DNA of 64,000 nt. It comes from Mobula hypostoma (taxonomy: Eukaryota). Of the stretch, positions 23,818 through 41,700 are shown piece by piece (position 1 is the first letter of the stretch; each line of letters opens with the position of its first letter). The stretch spans positions 153,266,001 through 153,330,000 of the forward strand of contig NC_086097.1 in the NCBI RefSeq assembly GCF_963921235.1, given 5' to 3'. The notes beneath the pieces were generated by a model. The model saw only the letters and a program-made list of their open reading frames with translations, did no database searches and was not told the origin of the DNA. The translations under genes were made by a program, and so were the position numbers.

Positions 23818-26800
23818 GTAGTGGAGGTATAATTTGTCCATCTGTGCTGATCACCCCATCCTTGACTAAGCTGTTCCACCATGAACATGATCTGTTATGA
23901 GTCAACATAATGCTTTCAGATCAGTTTGTGCATAGCACATACCTCCACCACACTGCTCAGGTGTGTTTCTGTGGTACAGGGGCTAGTGACTCTTGTGCCT
24001 GTTCTATCTACTTGCTACGGGTTATAAATCTAAGCCTCAAACAGACGGATCTAAGCAGAAACAACCCACGCCTACCCATCGACTACGTGATAAAGAGCTG
24101 TGAATCATGGTGGTAAACATACGTGGACTCCGATCAAATATAGGTGAACTTGCCAACCTGTGCACTGAAGAGAAACCTTCCATCATTATTGTCGTTGAAA
24201 CATTCCTCGACTCATCAGTCCCAGATGTAGCGGACTGCATTACCATCCCTGGCTACTCAATATGTTGCCGCAGAGATCAGGAGGGAACATCAGGAGGTGG
24301 CATTGCTGTTTACTGTTTGGAGGGTATTGTGATACACCGTAACCCTAGGAGAGATCCGAAAGACCTTGAACTCATGTGGTTCACCGTGGCTCTTCAACCA
24401 CTGAAGCTACTAATTGGTGCCATCTATCGACCTCCTAATGCCAACAATGACGTCCTTGAATACCTGGACAGTAACACCTTCCCCAAGTTGACAGAGTTCA
24501 GTGCACAGTCTGTGATGCTTATAGGGGACTTCAATGTCCATCATCTAGGCTGGCTGGGCAGCCAAACAACTGACAATGCTAGCCAGCACACACTACAACT
24601 AGCTGATAGTCTTGGTCTGCAGCAGATTGTGTCAGACCCAACAAGGGGGGAGTATATCCTTGCTCTTGTTATGACAGACCTACCCGTGAAGGCAACAACT
24701 ATGGCTCTAGTGGGTTCTTCAGACCACAACCCCATGCTAGTGAAGTTGGATGTTCCAGCCATACAAGAGGGAAGTTTGGTGTTACGACAAAGCCAACTTT
24801 TGGGACATGTGTGGTCATCTTTCATCAACTGACCGGTCTAGCATTCTCAAAGACAAGGACCCTGGGAAAGCTTGCACCAAGCTTACAGAAGTTATATGTG
24901 AGGCCATGGACACTCACAGTCCCAGCAAAATTGTTACTGAGAAGACTGGCGATCAAGTATGGTTTGATGACAAGTGCAGACGAGAAGCAAAGAAGAAACT
25001 TCGTCTCTACCGCCAGCTAAAGAAGTGCAACACCCCTGTTAATAAGGAGAAGTTTGCCCAGGCTGGGCAGTCGAGCAGAGAGACAGGCCCGAAGAAACCA
25101 TAACATCAAACTCAAAATGACTTAACCAGTGGTAACCTTAGCAGTAAGAAGTGGTGGAATGTTGTGAACTCCCTCTCTGGAAGAACAGGCCACTCTGACA
25201 TCCCTGTCATTGAGCACAATGGGTCTGTACATACAACAGCAAAGGATAAGGCCAATGTTTTCTGTCAGGCTTTTGCAGATAAATGTCAGCTCACAAATGC
25301 TAATGACCAGCCACCAGTTGTCAAGCAGCTTACTACCACCTCGCTGAACAAAATCATCTTCAAACCTAAAGATATCAGGAAAATTATGCAACAGCTTCAG
25401 CCTGATAAAGCATCTGGCCCTGACCAGATTCCAACTAGGGTCTTAAAGGAATGCAGTGCAGATCTTGCAAGTCCTCTCTGCCGCCTCTTCCAGCTATGCT
25501 TCTCGAGTGGTGTATTCTCAGAACAATGGAAAATTGCATCAGTAACACCAGTACACAAGCGGGATTACAGAGCTGATCCTACAAATTACCACCCCATATC
25601 CTTACTCAGTGTCATCAGCAAGATAATGGAAGCAGCAGTCCACAAACAAGTTCAGAGCTACCTACTCCGTAACAACTTAATTTCAAGTAGGCAGTATGGA
25701 TTTAGACCTGATCACAGTACAGACGATCTCCTCACCACCTTATCTCAAACGTGGAGCACCTTCTTAGACAAAGGTGGAGAAGTGTGTGTCATAGCCCTGG
25801 ATATCAAAGGAGCATTTGACAAGATCTGACATAATGGACTCTGTGTTAAGCTGAGATCCAAAGGAATATCTAGAATGCTGTTTAGATGGCTGCAGAGCTG
25901 TCTTCATGGATGGACAATCAAAGCTGTTATCTCTGGTCAGGCTTCTGATTCTTCAACCATCAATTCATCTGTACCACAGGGTTCAATACTTGGGCCACTT
26001 CTGTTTTCCATCTTTATTGATGACTTGCTTGATGCATGCAGTAACAAGCTATACCTGTACGCTGACGACTCCACACTGTTTGCACCATTTAGAGCAGGAG
26101 AGAGTAATACAGTGGCAGCAGGCCTGTATAGGGATCTTGACAGGATGAAAGCCTGGGCAGACGACCGGAATGTCTCCTTTGAGCCTACTCAGTGCAAGGC
26201 GATGGTGATGTCTAGGAAGAGGAATCCATCTAACCCCGTCCTGTGTTTTGGGAACTGCAAGCTGGATTTGAAGAAGGAGCTAGTCATCCTTGGTGTTAAT
26301 ATTGACAGCAAGTTGGTGTGGGATAAACACCTTTCCACTATTTCAAACAAGGCTGGACAAAGGCTTGGAGCTCTGTGGAAAGTAACATCTAAACTAGACA
26401 AAGAGGGCAGAGCCACGGTTTACAAAGCCCAGGTACGAAGTATTATGGAGTATGCCTGCTTATCATGGATGAATGCCTCACAGAGTGTCCTCAGCCAGCT
26501 TGATTTCATTTGAAGAAAGGCTCTCAGGATTATAGGTGTAGATGAAGCCACAGCTCGTGAGAAGCTAGCCATCAGTAGCTTACACTACAGATGACTGGTT
26601 GCTGCAGCGACTGTGCTATACAAAATGTACACCAGCCACAGCCCTGCAGACTTTCGCGTCATGCTGCCTTCATCTAATGAGAGATGGCGCACCACATGAT
26701 CAAGTTTATCTATGCCTGTTCATGCTGTTTCTATGCCTGATGCGAGAACCTACACACTGGATATAAGATTCCTTCACTGTGCTATCAGAATTTAGAACAG

Positions 26801-27567: not shown

Positions 27568-28066
27568 CATCATCATCATCATCAGGTGCCATGCCCAGTT
27601 TGAGCTTTGACTGCCATGGCCCGCACACTCCTGTTTCGGGTCAAGTGGATCAATTCATTGGTATTCATTTCCAGTTCTCTGGCTGCTGTCTCCATCATCA
27701 TTTGTCTTTGCCTTCCTCTTGCTTCCTTCCCTTCAATCTTTCCCATAATTACCTTGCATTCTAACTCCTCTTTCCTAATCACATGTCCAATGAAGTCGCG
27801 TTGCTTTTTCATGATCTCATACATTATTTCTCTTTTTGTGTTTGCTCTGTTCATGACATCCTCGTTAGATATTCGTTTTGTCCATGATATTCTTTGCATC
27901 CTCCTCAAAAACCACATCTCTGCTGCTTCAATTCATTACCTCATGTTACTAGAAATTGTCCAACATTCTGAGTCATATAACATAACTGGGTAAACGTAAC
28001 ATTTCGTGTTCTGAGGCGGGTTGTCATGCCTAGTTTAGAGTTGATCAGTATACTCTTCATTCTCGT
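27568..28066 (-). mobile_element. RTE LINE 3' fragment
   Basis: Reads MWFLRRMQRISWTKRISNEDV...GHVIRKEELE...GKIEGK..RGRQR, with a (TGA)n tail and an 11-bp TSD AATGTCAGTAT (27557-27567 / 28067-28077). Confidence 0.93.
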
Positions 28067-29954
28067 AATGTCAGTATATCCTTAATAAAATAAGGAGCCC
28101 AAAACCGCACACAATATTCCAAGTATGGTCGCAGGAGTACCTTATAGAGTCTCAACATCACATTCTGACTCTTATATTCTATACATCTAGAAATTAATGC
28201 CAACATTGCATTGGCCTTCTTCACCACCAACTCAACCTGCAGGTTAACCTCTAGGGTATCTTGCACAAGGACTCCCAAGTCTCTTTGCATATCTGCATTT
28301 TGAATTCTCTCCCCATCTAAACAATAGTCTTCCCATTTATTTCTTCCACCAAAGTGCATGACCATACACTTTCCAACATTGTATTTCATTTGCCACTTCT
28401 TTGCCCATTCCCCTAAACTATCTGAGTCACTCTACAGGCTCTCTGTTTCCTCAACAATACCCGCTCCTCTACCTATCTTTGTATCATCAGCAAATCTAGC
28501 CACAAATCCCTTGATACCATAGTCCAAATCATTGACATACATTGTAAATAGTAACAGTCCCAACACTGACCCCTGTGGAACTCCACTGGTAACCAGCAGC
28601 CAGCCAGAATAGGATCCCTTTATTCCCACTCTCCGTTTTCTGCCAACCAGCCAATGCTCCATCCACGCTAGCAACTTCCCTGTAATTCCATGGGCTCTTA
28701 TCTTGCAAAGCAGCCTCATGTGCGGCACCTTGTCAAAGGCTTTCTGAAAATCCAAGTACACTATGTCTGCTGCATCTCCTTTGTCTACCCTGCTTGTAAT
28801 TTCCTCAAAGAATTGCTGTAGGTTAGTCAAGCAGAATCTTCCTTTCAGGAAACCATGCTGGCTTTGGCCTATCTTGTCATGTGCCTCCAGGTACTCCATA
28901 ATCTCATCCCTAACAATTGATTCCAACAACTTCCCAACCACTGACGTCAGGCTAACAGGTCTATAGTTTCCTTTCTGCTGCCTCCCACCCTTCTTAAATA
29001 GCGGAGTAACATTTGCAATTTTCCAGTCATCCAGTACAATACCAGGATCTATCGATTCTTGAAAGATCATAGTTAATGCCTTCGTAATCTCTCCAGCTAC
29101 TTCCTTCAGAACCCGAGGGCACATTCCATCAGGTCCAGGAGATTTATCCACCCTCAGACCATTAAGCTTCCTGAGCACCTTCTCAGTCCTAATTTTCACT
29201 GCACAAACCTCACTTCCCTGACACTCTTGAATGTCTGGTATACTGCAGACGTCTTCCACTGTGAAGATACGCAAGATGCACAATGAGTTCCTCTGCCATC
29301 TCTGCATCTTTCATTACAATATCTCCAGCATCATTTAATATTGGTCCTATATCTTCCCTTGGCTCTCCTTTACCCTTCATATACTTAAAAAAGTTTTTAC
29401 TATCTTCTTTACCCTTCATATACTTTAAAAAATAGATAATCAATACAAGGAACCAGAGATTGGAATAAACTTTCTTTTTATGTTTTACGTAGTGCACTAA
29501 CAATCTCCTGAATATAAATGTGAAGCTGGGCATAAATACTTCCACTATGCTGTTTTGCACATAATCTCATTTGCTAAAATAGGATCAGTATAGTTCCTGT
29601 TGTGACCTACATATTGCCATTGCTGCACAGACTGTTTGGAAGTGAGTTGACATTTAAAGAAGGTTCCCCAAGGCAACATCAGTACAACTCAGAATGTACT
29701 GCCATGCAGGTGTTGCTTGGAGGAACACAGCAGTCATCAATGAAACTGCCCCTCTCCCTGTATTAATGCTAATCTGATTTATTCTGGTGCCATAAGTGAA
29801 CATACAGTAAAAGGATTAATGATTCCAGCACACAGCTCATGATAAGTTCCTAAACAGTATCTGATCAATGAAAGGAACAACATGGATTAATCCCTTATAA
29901 TGCTGATCAATGGACACTGAGGCTTGGAGATGTAGTTTGCTAGATATCGATGTC

Positions 29955-30300: not shown

Positions 30301-31937
30301 CGATTCCTGATATAACGTAGCAGAGCCTTTGATTGCATGTCATTCCTAAATCCGACACAATATGCTCCCAAATTCATTTGTGCATCAACAACAAAGATTA
30401 TGCATTTCTCTCAGGAACTCTAGTTTCTGCCATCAGTGGAGGAAGTACACAATGCCTGACCTGTGATGTCGTTAACTGTGTAAATGATCAAAGGGATCAT
30501 GCCACAAAATCTGTGAGTCATTTAACACATAAGTGACTACTGATACCATGTAGCATGCTTTTAAACACTTTCATCTCTGACATCTGTATAAAAGCACTAA
30601 GTTCTAAGGCTTTGATTTCTCGTTTGTCCTTGCAAACTATCACTAGCTGACCATATCCAATATCCGGGCTTGTTATAAATCAGATAATTGTGGTATTGTG
30701 TAAAATATATCATTAATTCCACCATCCTACACCAACCTATTCAATGATACATTTCATACATTATTTTGATATTGTTTGCTGATAGGAGATGGAGCAAAGA
30801 AGCAAAAATATTGGCTGATTGTCTGCTTTATAATATCTTGTGAACAAATAAGATTGGACAAATGAACAAAGATTTCCAGCACATAGAATCGTTCCATTTG
30901 CTGTATTATCCACTTGAATCTAATTAGACTCTTTTGCACTTTTCCCTTGTTTAGATCCATACTTTTGAACTTACTGTTGAATAAAGAATAGGTACTGATC
31001 CAATTGAAGGCTTCAGTTGGATCAGTGCTTATTGGAACAGGCAGCTAACTATTGTACAAGCTATTGATGAACATAAATTATTCATTACCCTGATATTAAT
31101 TTATAGATTTTGCTGTGCAGTCCTGTCTTCAAGTTCCTACATCCTGGTGTTTCATTTCATTTATCAGCATACCTGCTTCTTTGATTAAAACGTGGGCAAT
31201 ACTTGAAGGGATTGGAGGTTACTCCAGAGGAGAGACATGCAATATATTATGCCACTTAATCTAAAAGTTATGAATGTACGATGTAACAAGATGAGCAGGA
31301 ATGTATGTAAAGGATGTCAGCCAAAAATGAATCAAAGCAGGTTGTCTGTTAGCAACTGTATCAGCCAGTAAGATGCAGGGAGGGTGGTGTATGTGACTGA
31401 GCTCATAGCAAATGATTGATTGTACCACAAGCAAATTTAATTTACTCGGAAAATGAGTTTGTTAAAAGTGTGAGCAAACCAAACTAATGGCCAAATTGCA
31501 GGAATATCCTCCTACAAAAAGAAAGTTGCCTGGAAAAATGCGATTAGACTATAAGTGTTACTTTCACATTTTGCATGTAAAATCAATTTTAGTCACCTTC
31601 ACCTAGTTTTGCACTTCTGGTTCACGAAGATTCTCTATGTCCCTACATTCAACTCATACAATTTTACAGTTATGCCAGCAGCATGTAGCAAAAAACTATA
31701 TTGTAACTCATTATTTCTTTCAAAACAATATATCTTCTTCACTCTATTAAAACAAACCATTAAAAGTCACTTAAGATTGAAATCTCAAACATATCAGGAA
31801 GCACAAAAGAAATTTGGAATATTAAGATTACTAACATTATGTTGAACTGGGTATCAAAAGAAAAGCACATCAAGTTGAAGAAGCGATCAACTATAACCAA
31901 TTAAATGATGATTCCGAATGGAGGGGCTGGAAGTATT

Positions 31938-32464
31938 CTGCTCGTTTTAGGTCGCATCTGGAAATTCCAGTTGACGGACAATTTCCCACCACACCGCTCT
32001 GACATATTGGGAAATGATGTACTCGGCAGTTACAGTGGTTTGCCTTTGCCTTCTGCCGGGTGAGTTTAAAGAGATCACCACCTCTTGCAATGGATGACCA
32101 GGACGTCTAAGTGCTTTGCCGTGCTCTTAGCGCTCCACCAACGCCTGCCGACCTGCCTTCTTGACCGTTGGACCATTAATCGGTCTCCTCCACTCCATCT
32201 GCTAGGGCCAGACTTCACACGCAGGGATAGGCAGATCCCCTACCTCACCAAGGGTCGAAGACCTGATGGCTACCCTCACCTGGTTTGGCCCGTCTGCTGA
32301 GATGGTTTACCGGGGTGTGGCTGCTGTGCATGCTACAGCTACTTGGAGGCACAGGTAAGAGCTGAGTGCCAGGTGGGGACCAAAGGTGGATGAGCTACCC
32401 TGAAAAAGGGCATGGAGGCCCCCCACCAGAGGTGCTACCCCTCCCTAGACATCCCATACACCCC
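31938..32464 (-). mobile_element. Non-autonomous RTE-type retroelement headed by a ribozyme
   Basis: TSD TGGAAGTATT (31928-31937 / 32465-32474). GC-rich and non-coding, with an RTE/Bov-A-like GGCAAAGGCAAACCAC motif. Confidence 0.8.
32275..32464 (-). ncRNA. HDV-like self-cleaving ribozyme fold (this copy probably degenerate)
   Basis: P1 GGGGUGU (32464-32458) / ACACCCC (32318-32312). P2 CUUACCUG (32359-32352) / CAGGUGAG (32282-32275). L3 UCC with the GG after P1 forms P1.1. P4 CCAUCU / AGACGG. J4/2 GCCAA. P3 has a central mismatch. Confidence 0.75.
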
Positions 32465-33994
32465 TGGAAGTATTTACTCCTGTACAATGATTCCATATTT
32501 TCCATGTATATTTTTATAAGTGGTTATCAGACCTTGACTCTATGAATGAAGTCAAGACAAACTGCAGATGCTCTGACCACAATACTTTGAATATTCTCTG
32601 AAACTGGAGATGGCCAACACAGCAACCATGTGCAAATGAGGACAACATCAGCAGATGGTAACTCCTTAGCTGAAGGTGGAATTGAGCCAGCTTTTTGAAA
32701 TGAATGGGTTAATCCAGAACAGTCAACATGCTATTTATGAAAAACAAACAATCCTTGAAATTTTTAAGAAAGCTTTTGGAAGAATTGATAAATTGGAAAG
32801 ATAAAAAAAAAAGATGCAGTATCCCCAAATGAATGAACGAATGAATGGACTGACTTTATTTATAGGGAAATAGAAACTTCAATTCATTTCACATGAAGCT
32901 TGTTAATAAAGATCTAGAATATGGTATAAGAGAGCATGTAGACTTGAAATCTAGAGGAATACTAACAGAAATTAACTCTGCCCTAAAAGGCTATACATGC
33001 TGTACCATTTGAAATTTTCTAATTGTTAAAATAAATTAATGATTGACGGATTTTGCTGAGTAACAGTGTCAAGGTACGTGTAACAAAGGAGATGAGTTCC
33101 TGTGTTAATGGAGTAAGTCAACTAGATCAGGTTGAATAATATTACGGGTTTGAAGACCTGACTGCCTTTCTGGGGATATGTGACTTCAGTTTGAGTTAGC
33201 GCTGTGCTATAGTTCTTCTTCCATAAACTATTTTACATCCCATCTAAAGGTTATCTTCCAGCTTCCAAGTCTGACATCACATTGCTGCTATATGAGGTGC
33301 AGTGTACATTTAAGAAGGAAATGTTCCATGTGCCATAACCTTTGTCACATTGTTGTTGCCAACCACTGCTGTTATACCTTTCAATAAAGGATGTCTTGTT
33401 GTTCCTGGTACTACTAATTGTATACCTTGTCACATAACTGCAGAATCAAAGAACTGCCAAGGTGGAGAAGTTAGGGTGTTTTCCTTCAAACACCCTAAAG
33501 CAAGGCTGTAATGAATAGTGTGAAGTTAGTAGAAAACAAGTTTCTCTGCAATGGTGGTGATGATAGGTAGTTGATGTTCCCAATATTTTAGTGACTTGAA
33601 GGGAAACAGACATAATCAAGCATATCAGAGAATGAGTGAAAATGCTTTTGATGAATCAGAAAGAGACATGGAACAGAGCAACAATACACAAGGAAGGGAA
33701 TATGGTTGTTGGCAGTATGATTGAATCATGAGTCTTTTAGTTCCAGAAGCCACAGGTGAAAGAGAATGTTCTCCGATTATGTTCAGAATGTTTCAAGAAT
33801 TATAAAACTGGGACTAAAACAGGATGTTTGAGAGATAGTTCGGAGATATATCTTCAGGCTATGGGAAATTAAAAATAGTGCAATATCCCCATCTTTTCAG
33901 ATCAGGCCTTGTAGGATTAATTAGTGTAAGGGCAGTCAGTTGAGAGAGTGCAGAAAAATCTATTAAAAAATGAGGAAGTTGGAAAACAAGTTGG

Positions 33995-34407: not shown

Positions 34408-34794
34408 TGTCATGGTCCTGTCCAGCAATGCCCCATCTTGCTATTATTTCCTTAATTAGGTCTTAATCCCCTCGAATGATTTCCAATTGTTCCCAATTTT
34501 CATTAATTACAGCACACCTGCTTTCCAACAGCGAACTGAGGGTAAGAACCCTGGTGTCACTGTCATGCTTCGCCAGTTCGTTGGTCTTCTCTGGTGTGTG
34601 TAAACCTCATTCCCTGATCCCTTAGGACTGTTAGTTCTAAGCTCTGTACTATTCCCTGGATAATCTACGTAAACCTTGTCTCCGTGTAAAGATTCTCCTG
34701 AATACCTGTTCCACGTTCACAGCTGCGCTAACGCCTCACGACCCTGTCCCCGTGCCTGTGTCCTGGTTTCGTCCCCAGCCACGTCCTTGCAACA
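34408..34794 (+). repeat. 5' LTR
   Basis: Runs TGTCATGG...TTGCAACA. By hand count it differs from the 3' LTR by about 30 substitutions plus one indel. Confidence 0.95.
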
Positions 34795-34795
34795 G

Positions 34796-34806
34796 AACGA
34801 ACTGGC
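34796..34806 (+). promoter_or_regulatory. Self-priming primer-binding site
   Basis: AACGAACTGGC is the exact reverse complement of GCCAGTTCGTT at 34572-34582 within the LTR. Confidence 0.8.
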
Positions 34807-36445
34807 CAGAATGAACCCAGCGGGCATGGATCTGGTACAACAGGCCCTCGCCAGCCAGGACTACCTACTGGGCGCCAACGACCAACTGCTCAGGGAGGTC
34901 ACGGAAAACCTTTGTGCGCTGTACACGAATGTGAGGAAGGTCCCTTACTCCGTCCCTTCCTGTCTGACCAAACCGCACAGCCTGGGATGGCTACGCCCCT
35001 TGGGTCGGCAACACAATCCCCTTGAGAGCCGTACGTACCTGAACTGGAACCTTACAATGCTCTTTGGTCCTTGAACAACAGCCATGTACGTCCACCTCGG
35101 ACAAATGGAAAATTGCGTACATCATGGGGCTGTTATGAGGGGATGCCTTGGCATGGGCCACCGTGATCTGGAACAACCGACCAGAGGTCTGTCCTCCCTT
35201 CTCCTCCTTTGTCTCCGAAATGAGGAAGGACTTTGAACAGCCCATTTATGGTAAGGACGCCCCTAAGTGCTTGCTAACTCTCTGTCAGGGTTCGCGAAGC
35301 GTAGCAAAATACTCCATCGAGTTCTGAACATTAGCGGCCGACTCTGGGTGGAATGACGAGGCCCTACGGGAGGTGTTTCGGCAGGGCCTTTCAGATAAGA
35401 TAAAAGATGAATTGGCAGTGAGGGATGACGCGGACAGCCTGGACTCTCTGATCTCTCTAGCCGCTAGGCTAGATAATCGACTTCAAGAGCGTCTGAGAGA
35501 AAAGACTAGTCACCCCACTCCTCGGGTCAGCTCATGTCCCACCTTACAATTTTCAGCCAGCCTCCCTTCCCAGGCCACTCCAAGTGTAGCTCCTGCTCCA
35601 ACTGTCCCCACCACCCTGGGGGAGGAACCGATGCAGCTGGGACGGAACCGTCTCTCCCCTGCTGAACGACTTCGGAGGCAGAGAGTTGGGGATTGTTACT
35701 ATTGCGGCCAGCCTGGACATTTCCAGGATACCTGTCCTCTGCAACAAACGTGGAGAGCTCACCAGTAGAAAGGGGGACCATGGTGAGCCGGCTAACACTC
35801 CCTTCAGTCCCCCAGACCCAGATGCAGATCCTGGCTACTGTGAACTATCAACAACAGTCCCTGTCCCTATCTGCCTTGGTGGATTCCGGTGCCGAGGGAA
35901 ATCTGCTGGACGAGGACATAGCCTCCTGGGCCGGAATACCTCGGGAGTCATTAAGTACCCCTCTGGAGGCCAGGGCGCTGGATGGAAAACTGCTGGCTCG
36001 GATTACCCACTGTACGTCATCCCTCACCTTGATTCTGTCCAGAAACCATCGAGAGGAGGTATGATTTAACCTCATCTATTCTCCTCAAACTCCTGTAGTT
36101 CTGGGATATCCCTGGCTGAACCATCACAACCTCTACATTGGACGACCCCAACAGGTGGACTGCGAGAGCCAAGTGTCTGGACCGTGCCGACCCATTGGCA
36201 CTTATGTGAATGCACCTGTCATAACAAGTAAATAAAGTGCACACTGTTCTAATTTATTTTAACCTCAACCCACACTGTACACTTGACTTACATCCCCGGA
36301 GAGCGCACGACCTACTGCGCGCTCTCTGCAGTCCTCGACTAGAAAGCGGCATGCACCAGCTACCCACCTGTCATCTAAGGAGCGAATCTGTCATCTAATC
36401 GAATTGTTACCAGCAGTAAGTCACAGACCCTAAACCAAGAACAAC

Positions 36446-38083
36446 ATGCCTGCGCGAAAAAGCGCAAAGTCGAACAGGAAAACCGTCAGCTCAAATCTGA
36501 CTGGACTGATCAGAGAGAGAGCGCAACAGCTGCATCATTGCATGCATCATGGAATCTTGCCAAAGCTAAGAAGCCATTCACTGATGCCGAGTTGATTAAA
36601 ACGTGTGCAATTGATATGGTGGGCGAAGTTTTAAGTCACGATGAGAAAATCAAGAAAACAGTAGTGGAGCTATTAAAGACGGTGCCATTGTCGGCTATCA
36701 CGGCAACAAGAAGAGTAGAAGTTTTAGCGGAGGAGTGTTTTTCCAATCTACTCACTGATTTAGAGAAAGCAGAAGCCATATCACTAGCCATAGATTCATC
36801 CTGTGACCGAACCGATATGGAAGAGCAAGATTTTTTGACGGGAAGACCTTTTGGGAAGAGCTACTTTGTTTGCTTCCTCTGCCTGGGCGCACAACTGGGG
36901 AAATAATTTTTAACGAATTGACACAGATCTTTGAGAAGAATGGCTTGGATGCGAGCAAAATGGTGTCCGTTGTCACTGATGGGGCTCCGTCGATGGTGGG
37001 ACAACACAAGGGCTTGGTAAGCAGGTTTGCCGCTGTTAATCCAGCACTCTTAGCATTTCATTGCATTATTCACAAATCAGTGTGGTGCACTAAACTGTGT
37101 GGGGAAATGAAAGAGGCGATGATACTGTGACAAGACTGGTAAATTTCGTTCGTGAGAGTTCTGGTCTGCAACATCGCCTTTTCAGAGCATTGCTGGAGGA
37201 AACGTCAGCGGAACACAAAGATCTTTTATCGCATAATGATGTTCGCTGGCTAAGCAAAGGCCGTGTGTTGGAGAGGGTGTGCGACCTCGCAATGAGCTTG
37301 TGTCATTTTTATCCACCCTGCAGAGCCAAAAAGCCCAAGGATTTAAGAGATTTTTAAGTGACAACAAGGTGATGGCACATATTCTTTTTTTGTCTGACAT
37401 CAGGTTTCATCTAAATCAACTTAATCTGCAATTACGAGCCAACAACCACACTGTTGCGGACATGTACGAGGCGATTGAAGCTTTCCTGTCAAAGCTGAAC
37501 CTTTTGGAGAGAGTCATTCACAGGAGAAAGTTGCACTTTCCACGTCTGCGGGAGCATTGCAAGAAGAATGAAATGCGGGAGGAACCAGTGATGAAGGATT
37601 TCATGACGAGCCTGGCAGAAAACTTCAGGGAACGATTTGAAAGCTCCCCTAAACTCTCGGGTGACATCCTCCTCTTCCTGAGACAGCCGTTTTCCATTTC
37701 GGCTGATGGCCAGTGAACTGCAGAGGCCAAAAGGCTGGTGCCTTCCATCGATGAGGCAACTCTTCAGATGGAGGTCTTGGAAATGGGAACATCTGATTTG
37801 CTCAAAGCACAGCACAAGGACGTTGGGGTGAGTGACTTTTGGATTAACGTGGTTCCCCGAGCTCAATTCAAAAACACGAGAGCTATTGCAGTGCTCCTAC
37901 TCACACTGTTCGCCTCCACATACATATGTGAGTCATTGTTTTCATCAATGAACTCTATCAAGAACCAGGACAGAAACACTCTCTAATGTATATCTTGGCC
38001 AGTGCCTCAGGACTGCCACAACAGAATACAGGCCCGACATCAGAAGGATTGCCATATCCCATCACTGTCACTTCTCTCACTGA
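36446..38083 (+). pseudogene. hAT transposase pseudogene
   Basis: Consecutive ORF pieces at 36538-37986 lie in shifting frames. The N-terminal KKRK..ENRQ...W start is followed by an apparent deletion. Confidence 0.88.
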
Positions 38084-38526
38084 TTGGTGAGTGAATCAAC
38101 TTATTTTTGTCCATTTGTCAATCTTATTGTGGTATAATAATATTACAACAACAATAATACTGTTAATTTCATTTACAGCTACACTTCATACTTTAAATGC
38201 TACATAGCTTAATTTAAAAGAACAAATAGATTAAATGAGAGAACAGAAACAGTGGAAAAGGCAGTACTACTAAAACTCTGTGTAGAAGAGAAGTGTTCTT
38301 TGTGTGGAAGAGAAGTGGTGAAGACTACCATGTTTACTCTCTGCCTCTCGTTTTTCTTTTGCACTACCTTATTTTCCCTTTTCTACTTTCTATTTATGAT
38401 TCATAATTTAAATTTTTAATATTTACTATCAATTTGTACTCCAGGGAGCGCAAAGCGCAGACTCAAATATCGCTGTGATGATTGTACATTCTAGTATCAA
38501 TTGTTTGGCGACAATAAAGTATAGTG

Positions 38527-38530
<4 letters not shown>

Positions 38531-38574
<44 letters not shown>
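38531..38574. repeat. (TG)n microsatellite
   Basis: Directly visible. Confidence 0.95.
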
Positions 38575-38575
<1 letters not shown>

Positions 38576-38718
38576 TCCCAACGTGACAACTGTCAGTTGT
38601 GATAGCTAGAGTCATAATTAAATGGTTGGTTTTGGACTTATTTTGTTTCAAGAGTGCATTTCGTTTTCTTGTGTGACCCACAACACAGGCTTTGAGAATC
38701 CCAGGCCTAAATAATTAC

Positions 38719-38745
38719 AACTACTACTACTACTACTACTACTAC
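38719..38745. repeat. (ACT)n microsatellite
   Basis: Directly visible. Confidence 0.9.
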
Positions 38746-41700
38746 GTGGTAATAGCAGCAACAATAACATCTGCCCATAAAACAACTTACTGGCGCAATG
38801 AAAAAAAAAACCCTGGACGTTTTGGCCCTTGGCTTTGCATGCTTGACATAATTTGGCCCTTATGGAGAACTAGTTGGGGAACCCTGCCCTACATTGACTG
38901 GTCTACCGAGAGGATAGCCAGTTGGAGCCCACTTTGCCACGCCACCTGTCTGCGGTCAGCTCCATCCCCTAGGGAGGCTACAGCGACCTCACCTGTCTTG
39001 GAACTCCTGGACTTGTCCAGAGTCCCCGCAAAATACCATGACCTGGGGCAAGTATTCAGCAAACAACAGGCTCTTTCCCTGCCTCCGCAGCGCCCGTATG
39101 ATTGCACTATCGACCTTCTCCCCGGGGCCTCATTACCCACCAGTCATCTTTATAACTTGTCCCGACCAGAGAGAGAGGCCATGGCGAAATACATTAGCGA
39201 GTCCCTCGCGGCGGGCATTATCAGACCTTCATCCTCCCCGGCAGGCGCCGGTTTCTTCTTTGTAGAAAAAAAGGATGGTTTGCTTTGCCCCTGTATCGAT
39301 TACCGAGGCCTAAATAATATAGCAGTTAAAAATAAGTACCCACTGCCCCTCATTAATTTGGCATTTGAACCACGTCATGGAGCCACCATCTTGTCAAAGT
39401 GGGACCATTGTAGCGCCTACCATCTAGTCAGGATGAGGGAGGGAGACGAGTGGGAGACTGCTTTTAATACACCACTGGGCCACTTCGAATACTTGGTCAT
39501 ACCGTTTGGCCTCACCAATGCCCCCACCATTTTTTAAGCCCTAATCAATGATGTGCTGAGGGACTTCATTAATCTCTTTGTGTTCATCTACCTAGTTGAT
39601 ATCTTAATATTTTATAGCAGCCTCCAGAAACACATTCACCATGTCTGTCTAGTCCTCCAGAGACTGTGGGAGAACAAGTTATTGTGAAGGTGGAGAAGTG
39701 TGACTTCCACATTCCCTCGGTCAGCTTCCTGGGCTACATTATCGAAAACGGGCAGGTAAGGGTAGATCCTGTGAAGATCCGGGTGGTGGAAGAATGGCCC
39801 AGACCCTTGACACATAAACAATTTCAGCAGTTTTTGGGTTTTGCAAACTTTTACCACCGATTTATCAGGGATTACAGTTGGGTGACGGCACCACTCACCT
39901 GACTTACTTTGCCCACAACACCTCTTCTTTGGGACTTCAAGACCGATTCAGCCTCCATGGAACTAAAGAGGCATTTCACGACTGCGCCCATCTTGGTCCA
40001 ACCGGACCCCTCCTGCCAATTCGTTGTTGAGGTTGGCGACTCTGACTCCGGGACCGGGATGGGAGCAGTCCTGTCCCAACGATCAAGTTCGGACGAAAAG
40101 CTTCATCTTTGCGCCTTCTTTTCTCGCCGGCTGTCCCCTGCCGAGTGGAATTACAACGTGGGGAATCGGAATCTACTGGCAGTCAAGCTAGCATTGGAGG
40201 AGTGGAGGGAGAGGGCGGACGGGGCAAACACCCATTTATTGCTTGGACGGATCATAAGAACCTGGAATATATTCAGACCTCCAAACGTTTGAACTCCCGC
40301 CAGGTCCATTGGGCATTACTTTTTGGACGATTCAAGTTTTCTCTCACATACCGTCCAGGGTCCAGGAACGGGAAAGCTGACGCGCTCCCACCAATACAAT
40401 TCCAAGGAGGACACTTCCAGCACAGAGACTATCCTCCCACCATCCTGCTTGGTGGCAACCCTCACTTGGGAGATTGAGTCCAAAGTAAAGGAAGCCCAGC
40501 GGGACGACCCCGACCCCGGCAATGGACCCGGCGATCGCCTGTATGTGCCCGTTTCTGTCAGGTCCCAGGTTCTCCAGTGGGGGTACGCATCTCGTTTCGC
40601 CTTTCACCCCGGGAGTGATCGGACACTGGCTCTCCTGAAAGGACACTTTTGGTGGCCTTCCATGGAGGCGGATACCCATTCCTATGTCTCTGCATGTTCC
40701 ATCTGTGCCCGTGGAAGAGTCTCTCATCAACCACCTGGGGGGTTACTTCGAACCCTACCTGTCTCTGGTTGTCCTGGGTCGCACATCACCCTAGATTTTG
40801 TCACCGGTCTACCCTCTTCACATGGAAACACCACCATCCTCACCATGGTAGACCGGTTCTCCAAGGCGGTTCACTTGGTAGCCTTCCCTAAACTCTTCTG
40901 CTCAGGAAACCACAGACCTTCTCATCTGCCACATCTTCTGCCTCTACGGAGTTCCGGCGGGCATTGTGTCCGATCGAAGTTCCCAATTCATCTCGCAGGT
41001 ATGGAAGGCCTTCTGTCAAGCCTTGGGTGCCTCAGTCAGCCTGTCATCCAGCTTTCACGCACAGATGAATGGGCAAATGGAACGGGTCAACCAGGATTTG
41101 GAGGCGACGCTACGTTGTACAACAACCAACAACCCGTCTACCTGGAGTGACCATCTCGCGTGGGTTGAGTATGCCCACAACTCTCTGGTTAGTACTACCA
41201 TCGGAAGGCCTCCCTTTAAGTGCTCCCTTGGGTACCAAACCCCGTTGTTCCCCGCACAAGAAAAGGAGATTGTGGTGCCGTCTGTTCAGGCCCATATCGA
41301 TTGGTGCCGCAAGGTTTGAGAGGACACACGCACGGCCCTGCCCAGATCAGTAGATTGCAATAAGAGGATTGCTGATTGACACTGGATTCCTGTGCCTGAG
41401 TGTCAACCTGGGCAGAAGGTGTGGCTCTCATCCAAAGACATCTCTCTCAGAAACGAGCCTAAGAAACTCGCCCCTTGCTTCCTGGGAAATTTTGAGGTCG
41501 AAAGTATCATCAACCCCACAGCAGTCCGACTTAAACTACCAAGATCTATGCACATCCACCCTACTTTTCATGTTTCCAAATTAAAACCACTTTCCGTCAG
41601 TCCCTTGTGTCCTCCGACCGAAACCCCTCCACCCGCCTGGATCATCGACAACCATCCAGCATACACTGTCTGGCGGCTACTACATGAGCGCCGTTAGGGC

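Follow-up and report, generated by a model that had tools for sequence, protein, structure and literature searches.

The window analysed here, a stretch of 64,000 nucleotides, carries on its minus strand a non-coding retroposon that belongs to a multicopy family (family A) and that, judged from alignments with other repeats of the same genome, is a chimera, with nucleotides (nt) 1-379 derived from the 5' end of an RTE LINE and a tail derived from elsewhere. The head opens with a predicted HDV-like ribozyme, the fold of which is established, on comparative evidence from six families, by covariation, and which bears an additional hairpin in its loop L3. In the account that we favour, with a probability of roughly two in three, read-through RNA cuts itself 5' of G1, after which a tail-binding LINE enzyme inserts it. 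Specifically, a founding event would have joined the first 379 nt of an RTE LINE (family F) to the 148-nt tail of another RTE-related lineage; a source copy would be co-transcribed from upstream DNA, self-cleavage by the HDV-like ribozyme 5' of G1 would define the 5' end anew in every round, and a LINE enzyme would recognise the tail and insert the RNA by TPRT, leaving target-site duplications (TSDs) of 7-14 bp.

The description of the element as a GC-rich, TSD-flanked retroposon of about 527 bp, given in a first-pass annotation made from the letters of the window, holds. The GC content is 0.556 against 0.32-0.34 in the flanks, and the 10-mer TGGAAGTATT stands at 31928-31937 and again at 32465-32474, the direct repeat reaching 11 bp (31927-31937 and 32464-32474) once G32464 is counted. 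Moreover, a single contig in the public run X11 joins 31926 to 32464, omitting 537 bases, with an 11-letter overlap at the joint and three differences in the flanks, and this empty site identifies the insert as a genuine insertion; the same run contains 115 contigs whose match ends at 32464. Since the 11-bp repeat takes in G32464, the TSD edge of this copy is ambiguous by one base, so that the annotated coincidence of the cleavage site, 5' of G32464, with the TSD boundary is right in position and precise to within one base. The sense strand contains no ATG ORF of at least 40 aa, and the element has no tRNA or Rfam match. A Pol III A box followed by a B box is likewise absent from it, there being no exact B box and the sole B-box near-match (nt 205) preceding the A-box match (nt 290), which is the wrong order.

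Across the 3.48 Gb of genome searched, the 40 scored matches to the element were all full-length, and 39 of them were other copies with 88-90% identity. Thirty family A loci lie 4-9% from their majority (6.0% for the window copy), show two tail types and are flanked in 19 cases by TSDs of 7-14 bp, in agreement with the earlier proposal of a non-coding, multicopy, SINE-like family without Pol III boxes. For a core motif of 18 bases the genome gives 986 exact matches, the first 30 of which by position fall into 8 family A loci, 1 LINE and 21 members of an older family (family E), and family A can be estimated at several hundred to about a thousand headed copies.

The 5' ends of these copies, which the first-pass annotation had suggested to map, mostly coincide with the G of P1. 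Among the 30 loci, chosen by their 3' end and including the window copy, 14 begin within nt 1-4, another 4 within nt 5-12 and the remaining 12 deeper in the element; of 8 family A loci chosen by position, 5 start at nt 1. The 30 aligned copies are dispersed over many contigs and their flanks are unrelated up to G1; the 5'-truncated copies bear TSDs of their own, as TPRT predicts. Families A, B, E and F have the 5' strand of P1 in duplicate, at nt 1-7 and again at nt 10-16, and C and D have it once; a second cut site at nt 10 is possible, for which the 4 loci starting at nt 5-12, two of them resembling one duplicated insertion, are suggestive only. On one contig (G000:C91), the family A loci L040 and L041 lie 330 kb apart in opposite orientation with identical start and TSD, and probably represent one insertion within a segmental duplication.

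Table 1. Features of the family A copy, in window positions, with the evidence for each.
Feature	Positions	Strand	Evidence
Whole element, family A copy, non-coding, 527 bp	31938..32464	-	genome copies, TSD, empty site
Upstream TSD, 10 bp (11 bp with G32464)	32464..32474	-	repeat; 11 letters fit both sides of the empty-site joint
Downstream TSD	31927..31937	-	direct repeat
190-nt fold of the HDV-like ribozyme, predicted to cleave 5' of G32464	32275..32464	-	descriptor, six families, pair counts
P1 5' strand, pairs with 32312-32318	32458..32464	-	pair 6 is G-C in 18/26 and A-U in 6/26 rows
P1 5' strand, second copy (nt 10-16), mutated at 32452 here	32449..32455	-	family alignment
J1/2 domain, 98 nt, rod-shaped, multi-stem	32360..32457	-	fold of family majorities, pair counts
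P2 5' strand, pairs with 32275-32282 (P2')	32352..32359	-	pair 6 varies by family
P3 5' strand, C32349 in a C-C mismatch private to the window copy	32348..32350	-	24/27 G-C
L3 core, 7 nt: U (32347), P1.1 CC, G	32341..32347	-	family majorities
19-nt hairpin at the 3' end of L3	32322..32340	-	descriptor, family comparison
P3' (32319-32321), P1' (32312-32318), P1.1 GG (32310-32311)	32310..32321	-	register, families
P4 hairpin, A32303 in an A-C mismatch at a CpG	32290..32305	-	3/6 pairs changed on both sides, A vs B
J4/2 with candidate catalytic C32288	32285..32289	-	C kept across in-register loci
Remainder of RTE LINE 5' UTR (nt 191-379), common to LINE family F	32086..32274	-	86-89% to six LINE loci
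Tail of foreign origin, 148 nt (nt 380-527), with a short microsatellite at its end	31938..32085	-	3' ends of F, C and D do not match it

On the minus strand, all the strands of an HDV-like ribozyme that the first-pass annotation had named lie at the places, in the order and in the register it gave (Table 1). P1, P2, P3, P1.1 and P4 follow one another as in the nested double pseudoknot, and G1, which opens P1 and pairs with a pyrimidine, marks the element's 5' terminus, with the one-base TSD ambiguity of this copy. The two mismatches listed earlier, C-C in P3 (32349/32320) and A-C in P4 (32303/32292), are both present and represent decay, because the family majority restores pairing at both: 24 of the 27 in-register family A loci have G-C as the middle pair of P3 and 1 has C-C, and the P4 mismatch is a G to A change at a CpG. 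Of the refutations proposed in the first-pass annotation, neither of the two that concern sequence, unrestored pairing in P3 and P4 and copies starting elsewhere than at the P1 G, came true. The window copy is probably impaired, the C-C falling in a P3 of 3 bp. P1.1, in which the CC of L3 meets the GG after P1', is intact in 20 of the 27 loci, the remainder being mostly CpG decay.

A purpose-written HDV descriptor, the loosest setting of which admits an L3 as long as 40 nt together with a single mismatch in P3 and another in P4, retrieved one site in the 64-kb window, at that setting only, with its start at 32464 and the catalytic C at 32288 or 32287. At the same setting it matched once among 5000 dinucleotide-shuffled versions of the element and had 0 matches in 40 shuffles of the window; when no mismatch is admitted, 9 of the 30 family A loci pass. 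Little is conserved in HDV-like ribozymes besides the catalytic C and four positions (PMC3774820; for core features see also PMC10879173), and the design descriptor has a 7-nt L3 with U..CG and a J4/2 of CRRA (PMC6326823). Family A departs from this design in the length of its L3, in J4/2, which reads C-C-A-A with a C instead of a purine after the catalytic C, and at position 5 of L3, which is A although the U and G of the loop are in place; the same A is found in family D with a 7-nt L3.

The evidence that carries the fold is its conservation among six families (A to F), the majorities of which share the order P1-P2-P3-L3-P1'-GG-P4-GCnAA-P2', with no broken pair in the majority cores and with the U-C-C and G of L3, the GG and the G-C-n-A-A constant. 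Covariation, which had been named as a check, is found as double changes in P1, P2 and P4 among the six families, whereas P3, P1.1 and the catalytic C are invariant, so that P3 and P1.1 provide no covariation signal. Pair 6 of P2, for instance, is C-G in A, B, E and F, U-A in 6/6 loci of C and G-C in 18/22 loci of D, and three of the six P4 pairs changed on both sides between A and B, a comparison that is valid for the core and the downstream helices only. These anchor counts refer to in-register loci only (27/30 in A, 17/26 in B, 6/7 in C, 22/23 in D, 14/21 in E and 2/6 in F), a restriction that favours intact cores. Among such loci the catalytic C is kept in 27/27 of A, 22/22 of D and 6/6 of C; it is placed at 32288, as annotated, because the following base varies among C, U and G by family.

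Over an alignment of 26 rows, 93.1% of cells are paired and double changes occur in 11 of the 27 pairs. P2-L3 is omitted from this count, since MAFFT misplaced it in families C and D by three columns, and anchors were used there. The covariation score is 0.332 against 0.184 for shuffled alignments (0/500) and at most 0.11 for slid partners. Because the rows are related, a relatedness that the shuffles keep, the covariation of the core amounts to about six independent double changes. The family A head is undiverged from that of family F, and family A by itself is therefore no evidence of selection.

Structure is also conserved around the core. J1/2 folds as a rod in which 90-96% of the pairs are kept and 6 of 15 pairs changed on both sides over the six families. 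The stem GGUGGGG/CCCCACC, drawn in this domain by the first-pass annotation, is 77% paired over the same families, with two pairs broken in 14 of 26 rows, and is not the conserved fold, the rod being better paired. Just 3' of P2', at about 32210-32270 of the window (minus strand), further hairpins are found, one with a G-C to A-U change between A and B, which indicates that structure extends beyond the ribozyme.

The feature that sets the family A head apart is L3, which is 26 nt long in A and F and reaches 28 nt in B and E, as opposed to 7 nt in C and D. The difference corresponds to an extra hairpin placed after the seventh L3 base, of 19 nt in A and 21 nt in B and E, which is lacking in C and D. 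The start of L3 at U32347 had been correctly placed, but the 19-nt hairpin (32340-32322), which makes the loop 26 nt long and not about 7, had been overlooked. Family A hence lacks the short, 7-nt L3 of HDV-like ribozymes and for that reason is not filed as a canonical one; an Rfam scan of the window region and of five sister loci returned no HDV-type match. Families A and B both bear the insert, yet they differ by three double changes in P4, implying that the fold was kept after the insert arose; the ribozyme would presumably tolerate the hairpin. No HDV-like ribozyme with an L3 insert, and no RTE ribozyme of a cartilaginous fish, was found in the literature searched; as to the former, the primary papers of the field and their supplements (e.g., Ruminski 2011) may list one.

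The chimeric make-up of the element emerges from the comparison with family F, a full-length LINE with the family A head, which matches nt 1-379 in 5 of 6 loci with 86-89% identity, and the 3' end of which is unlike the family A tail in all four loci (of six) with the end seen. The tail does not match the 3' ends of families F, C or D, and when its last 68 nt were used to look for a partner LINE, the 30 loci examined were all of family A, either full, truncated or rearranged. The link to RTE elements drawn in the first-pass annotation is thus upheld for the head, while the expected autonomous RTE sharing both ends was not encountered, the 3' end of family F being different. A search for other RTE LINEs, for which we took the accession DUF6451 to be a suitable handle, retrieved other RTE-like LINEs, with 0 of 50 loci having sequence in common with the element. 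Over 146 columns, the tail has 74% identity with the 3' portion of a SINE (L038:2209-2480, minus strand) with Pol III A and B boxes in order, which is a lead to the tail donor. By eye, an inverted repeat of about 10 bp lies in the tail at about 31980-32015 of the window (minus strand) and recurs in this SINE; it is a candidate recognition stem for the reverse transcriptase.

The RTE origin of the head is indicated by its UTR motifs and by the single endonuclease-reverse transcriptase frame of the related LINEs. An RTE 5' UTR motif taken from the supplement of PMC5786205 has 3,643 exact matches in the genome, with 0 for the control, and led to families B and C. Family B, of about 560-600 bp, has nt 1-378 in common with A at about 73-78% identity and another tail, and family C is a LINE with an ORF of up to 1,129 aa that contains endonuclease and reverse transcriptase domains. 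A few family C copies retain a head, which folds in the same way and has an L3 of 7 nt; the C head has only 7 close matches and led to family D, which comprises LINE and short members, also with a 7-nt L3. The body of C is 67% like that of F, with long ORF segments 37-48% alike. Conversely, the heads of C and D are 75% identical over nt 1-203 and their ORFs only 25-29% alike (L174 and L179-L185 against L186-L208 and L240-L243), and from this likeness of the heads despite distant ORFs, heads seem to have moved between RTE lineages. With such an exchange, the L3 insert could be either a gain or a loss. Head exchange between RTE lineages was not found in the literature searched, from which the key primary papers may differ.

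Most full-length family C LINEs (L129:900-1100, L139, L140 and L141-L178) are without the ribozyme head and show a shared GC-rich sequence joined after an AG in the 5' UTR, one joint lying in the P4 loop. The pieces added to them translate like what we take to be first exons of host genes, OTUD5-like and MCEE-like. At a further locus, L091 (G000:C36:131597000-131605000, minus strand), lies an RTE-like LINE that belongs to another lineage and has a 1,018-aa open frame; a short element headed by a different RTE-type sequence follows farther downstream, and both fail the HDV descriptor. Within the window itself, four broken frames are presumably remnants of other mobile elements: one like an endonuclease-reverse transcriptase LINE (24104-26513, plus strand), one like a CR1-type reverse transcriptase (28057-29310, minus strand), one like an LTR retrotransposon (34673-41319, plus strand) and one like a nested DNA transposase (36379-37716, plus strand).

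Three other explanations of these observations have to be weighed against self-cleavage of a read-through transcript. That the HDV-like pattern is a chance pairing in a GC-rich repeat is hardly credible: the single-sequence folding energy is no better than that of shuffled sequences (z +0.73, with a tool that has no pseudoknot model) and Rfam gives no match, but the descriptor is satisfied by so few shuffles (1/5000), the covariation among six families refutes it, and canonical versions with a 7-nt L3 exist in C and D. The main rival reading, which we consider unlikely, holds that the fold derives from an HDV-like ribozyme, that the L3 hairpin disabled or greatly slowed it in A, B, E and F, that an internal Pol II promoter sets the 5' end, and that the structure serves protein binding or translation initiation. 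The insert does occupy the active-site loop, the Pr77 head of trypanosomes is both promoter and ribozyme (PMC4035085), HDV-like heads have been proposed as translation aids (PMC6765202), and in family C the majority of LINEs have spread lacking the ribozyme head. Against this, the catalytic C, the U, CC and G of L3 and the GG are fixed in the insert-bearing majorities, P4 changes are compensatory, and the starts of the copies agree with G1 to the base.

The ribozyme could also be active in the parent LINE and a mere passenger in family A, the start having been inherited from a cleaved LINE RNA at a founding template switch and the source being transcribed by other means. In keeping with this, the heads of A and F (86-89%) are as alike as the copies of A are among themselves (88-90%), and family A displays no separate sign of selection. 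However, an uncut read-through source would be expected to leave a shared upstream flank, yet the 30 copies are unrelated up to G1; a single source with a promoter placed exactly at G1 could account for this; the passenger explanation is given a low probability. Self-cleavage 5' of G1 in a co-transcribed source copy, followed by insertion through a tail-binding LINE enzyme, remains the preferred reading.

Should the heads with an L3 insert cleave, the HDV active site would be seen to accept a helix in a loop usually held fixed in length, which would call for broader search descriptors and open another position to engineered insertions; natural controls exist within one genome, in the form of sister families that have or lack the insert. 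In a wider form, it is an evenly balanced proposition that an active subclass with an L3 helix of 19-21 nt stands at the front of at least four RTE-derived families of this genome and escapes both Rfam and descriptors limited to a short L3, that many more of its members are perhaps present in vertebrate RTEs, and that the head is an exchangeable module. Cleavage of the insert-bearing heads would also lend structural support, in a large animal genome, to the published idea that short RTE derivatives arise through self-cutting 5' ends, with ribozyme heads seen moving between RTE lineages.

Ribozyme-headed non-autonomous retroposons are already known, namely R2 SIDEs, R2/R1 hybrids and NARTc. Family A lacks the tRNA, 5S or 7SL head with A then B box that defines Pol III SINEs. 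Its closest counterparts in architecture are the R2/R1 hybrid SIDEs and the R2 SIDEs of Drosophila, the ribozymes of the hybrids being active (Eickbush and Eickbush 2012, PMC3414825): as described there, these are non-coding elements with TSDs that combine the ribozyme of one non-LTR element with the 3' end of another and have a ribozyme-set 5' end. In contrast to them, family A is RTE-derived and dispersed, without the 28S rDNA site, and retains 379 nt of head and an L3 hairpin, whereas R2/R1 SIDEs retain the ribozyme only; moreover, its cleavage is predicted. The NARTc, RIME and SIDER elements of trypanosomatids are likewise short, non-autonomous retroposons with an HDV-like ribozyme at their start, which is active in several cases (PMC4035085), but they belong to the L1Tc/ingi clade and have a 77-nt head that doubles as promoter, as opposed to the 190-nt ribozyme of RTE origin in family A.

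The bipartite non-autonomous RTE LINEs (RTESINE2, WALLSI3, MAR4_MD and RTE-N2_Lch; Kojima 2018, PMC5786205) resemble family A in being ORF-less, in possessing the extreme 5' end of an RTE LINE and no Pol III head, and in their microsatellite tail. The same paper lists predicted 5' ribozymes for several RTE families and also describes tail exchange, its available text giving no ribozyme structure for the bipartite elements. By eye, nt about 355-378 of the element resemble RTE-11_PSi 370-393 and RTE-2_CPB from 363 onwards, and a tail motif matches the RTE part of SINE2-2_ACar. Family A thus combines an RTE 5' end, the lack of an ORF, TSDs and a microsatellite tail with a 3' end that is not that of the head-giving LINE, and its foreign tail keeps it out of the strict bipartite RTE class, into which families B, D and E fit better. 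As to the ribozyme itself, HDV-like ribozymes known from RTE elements, for instance the one named drz-Agam-2-1 (Webb et al. 2016, PMC4908430; Ruminski et al. 2011 as cited therein), in which a structured J1/2 speeds cleavage (PMC4908430), share with family A the helix order, the cut at the first P1 base, a large structured J1/2 and an extendable P2, and family A is distinguished from this type by its L3 hairpin, of 19-21 nt over the insert-bearing families, its doubled P1 5' strand and the lack of an Rfam match.
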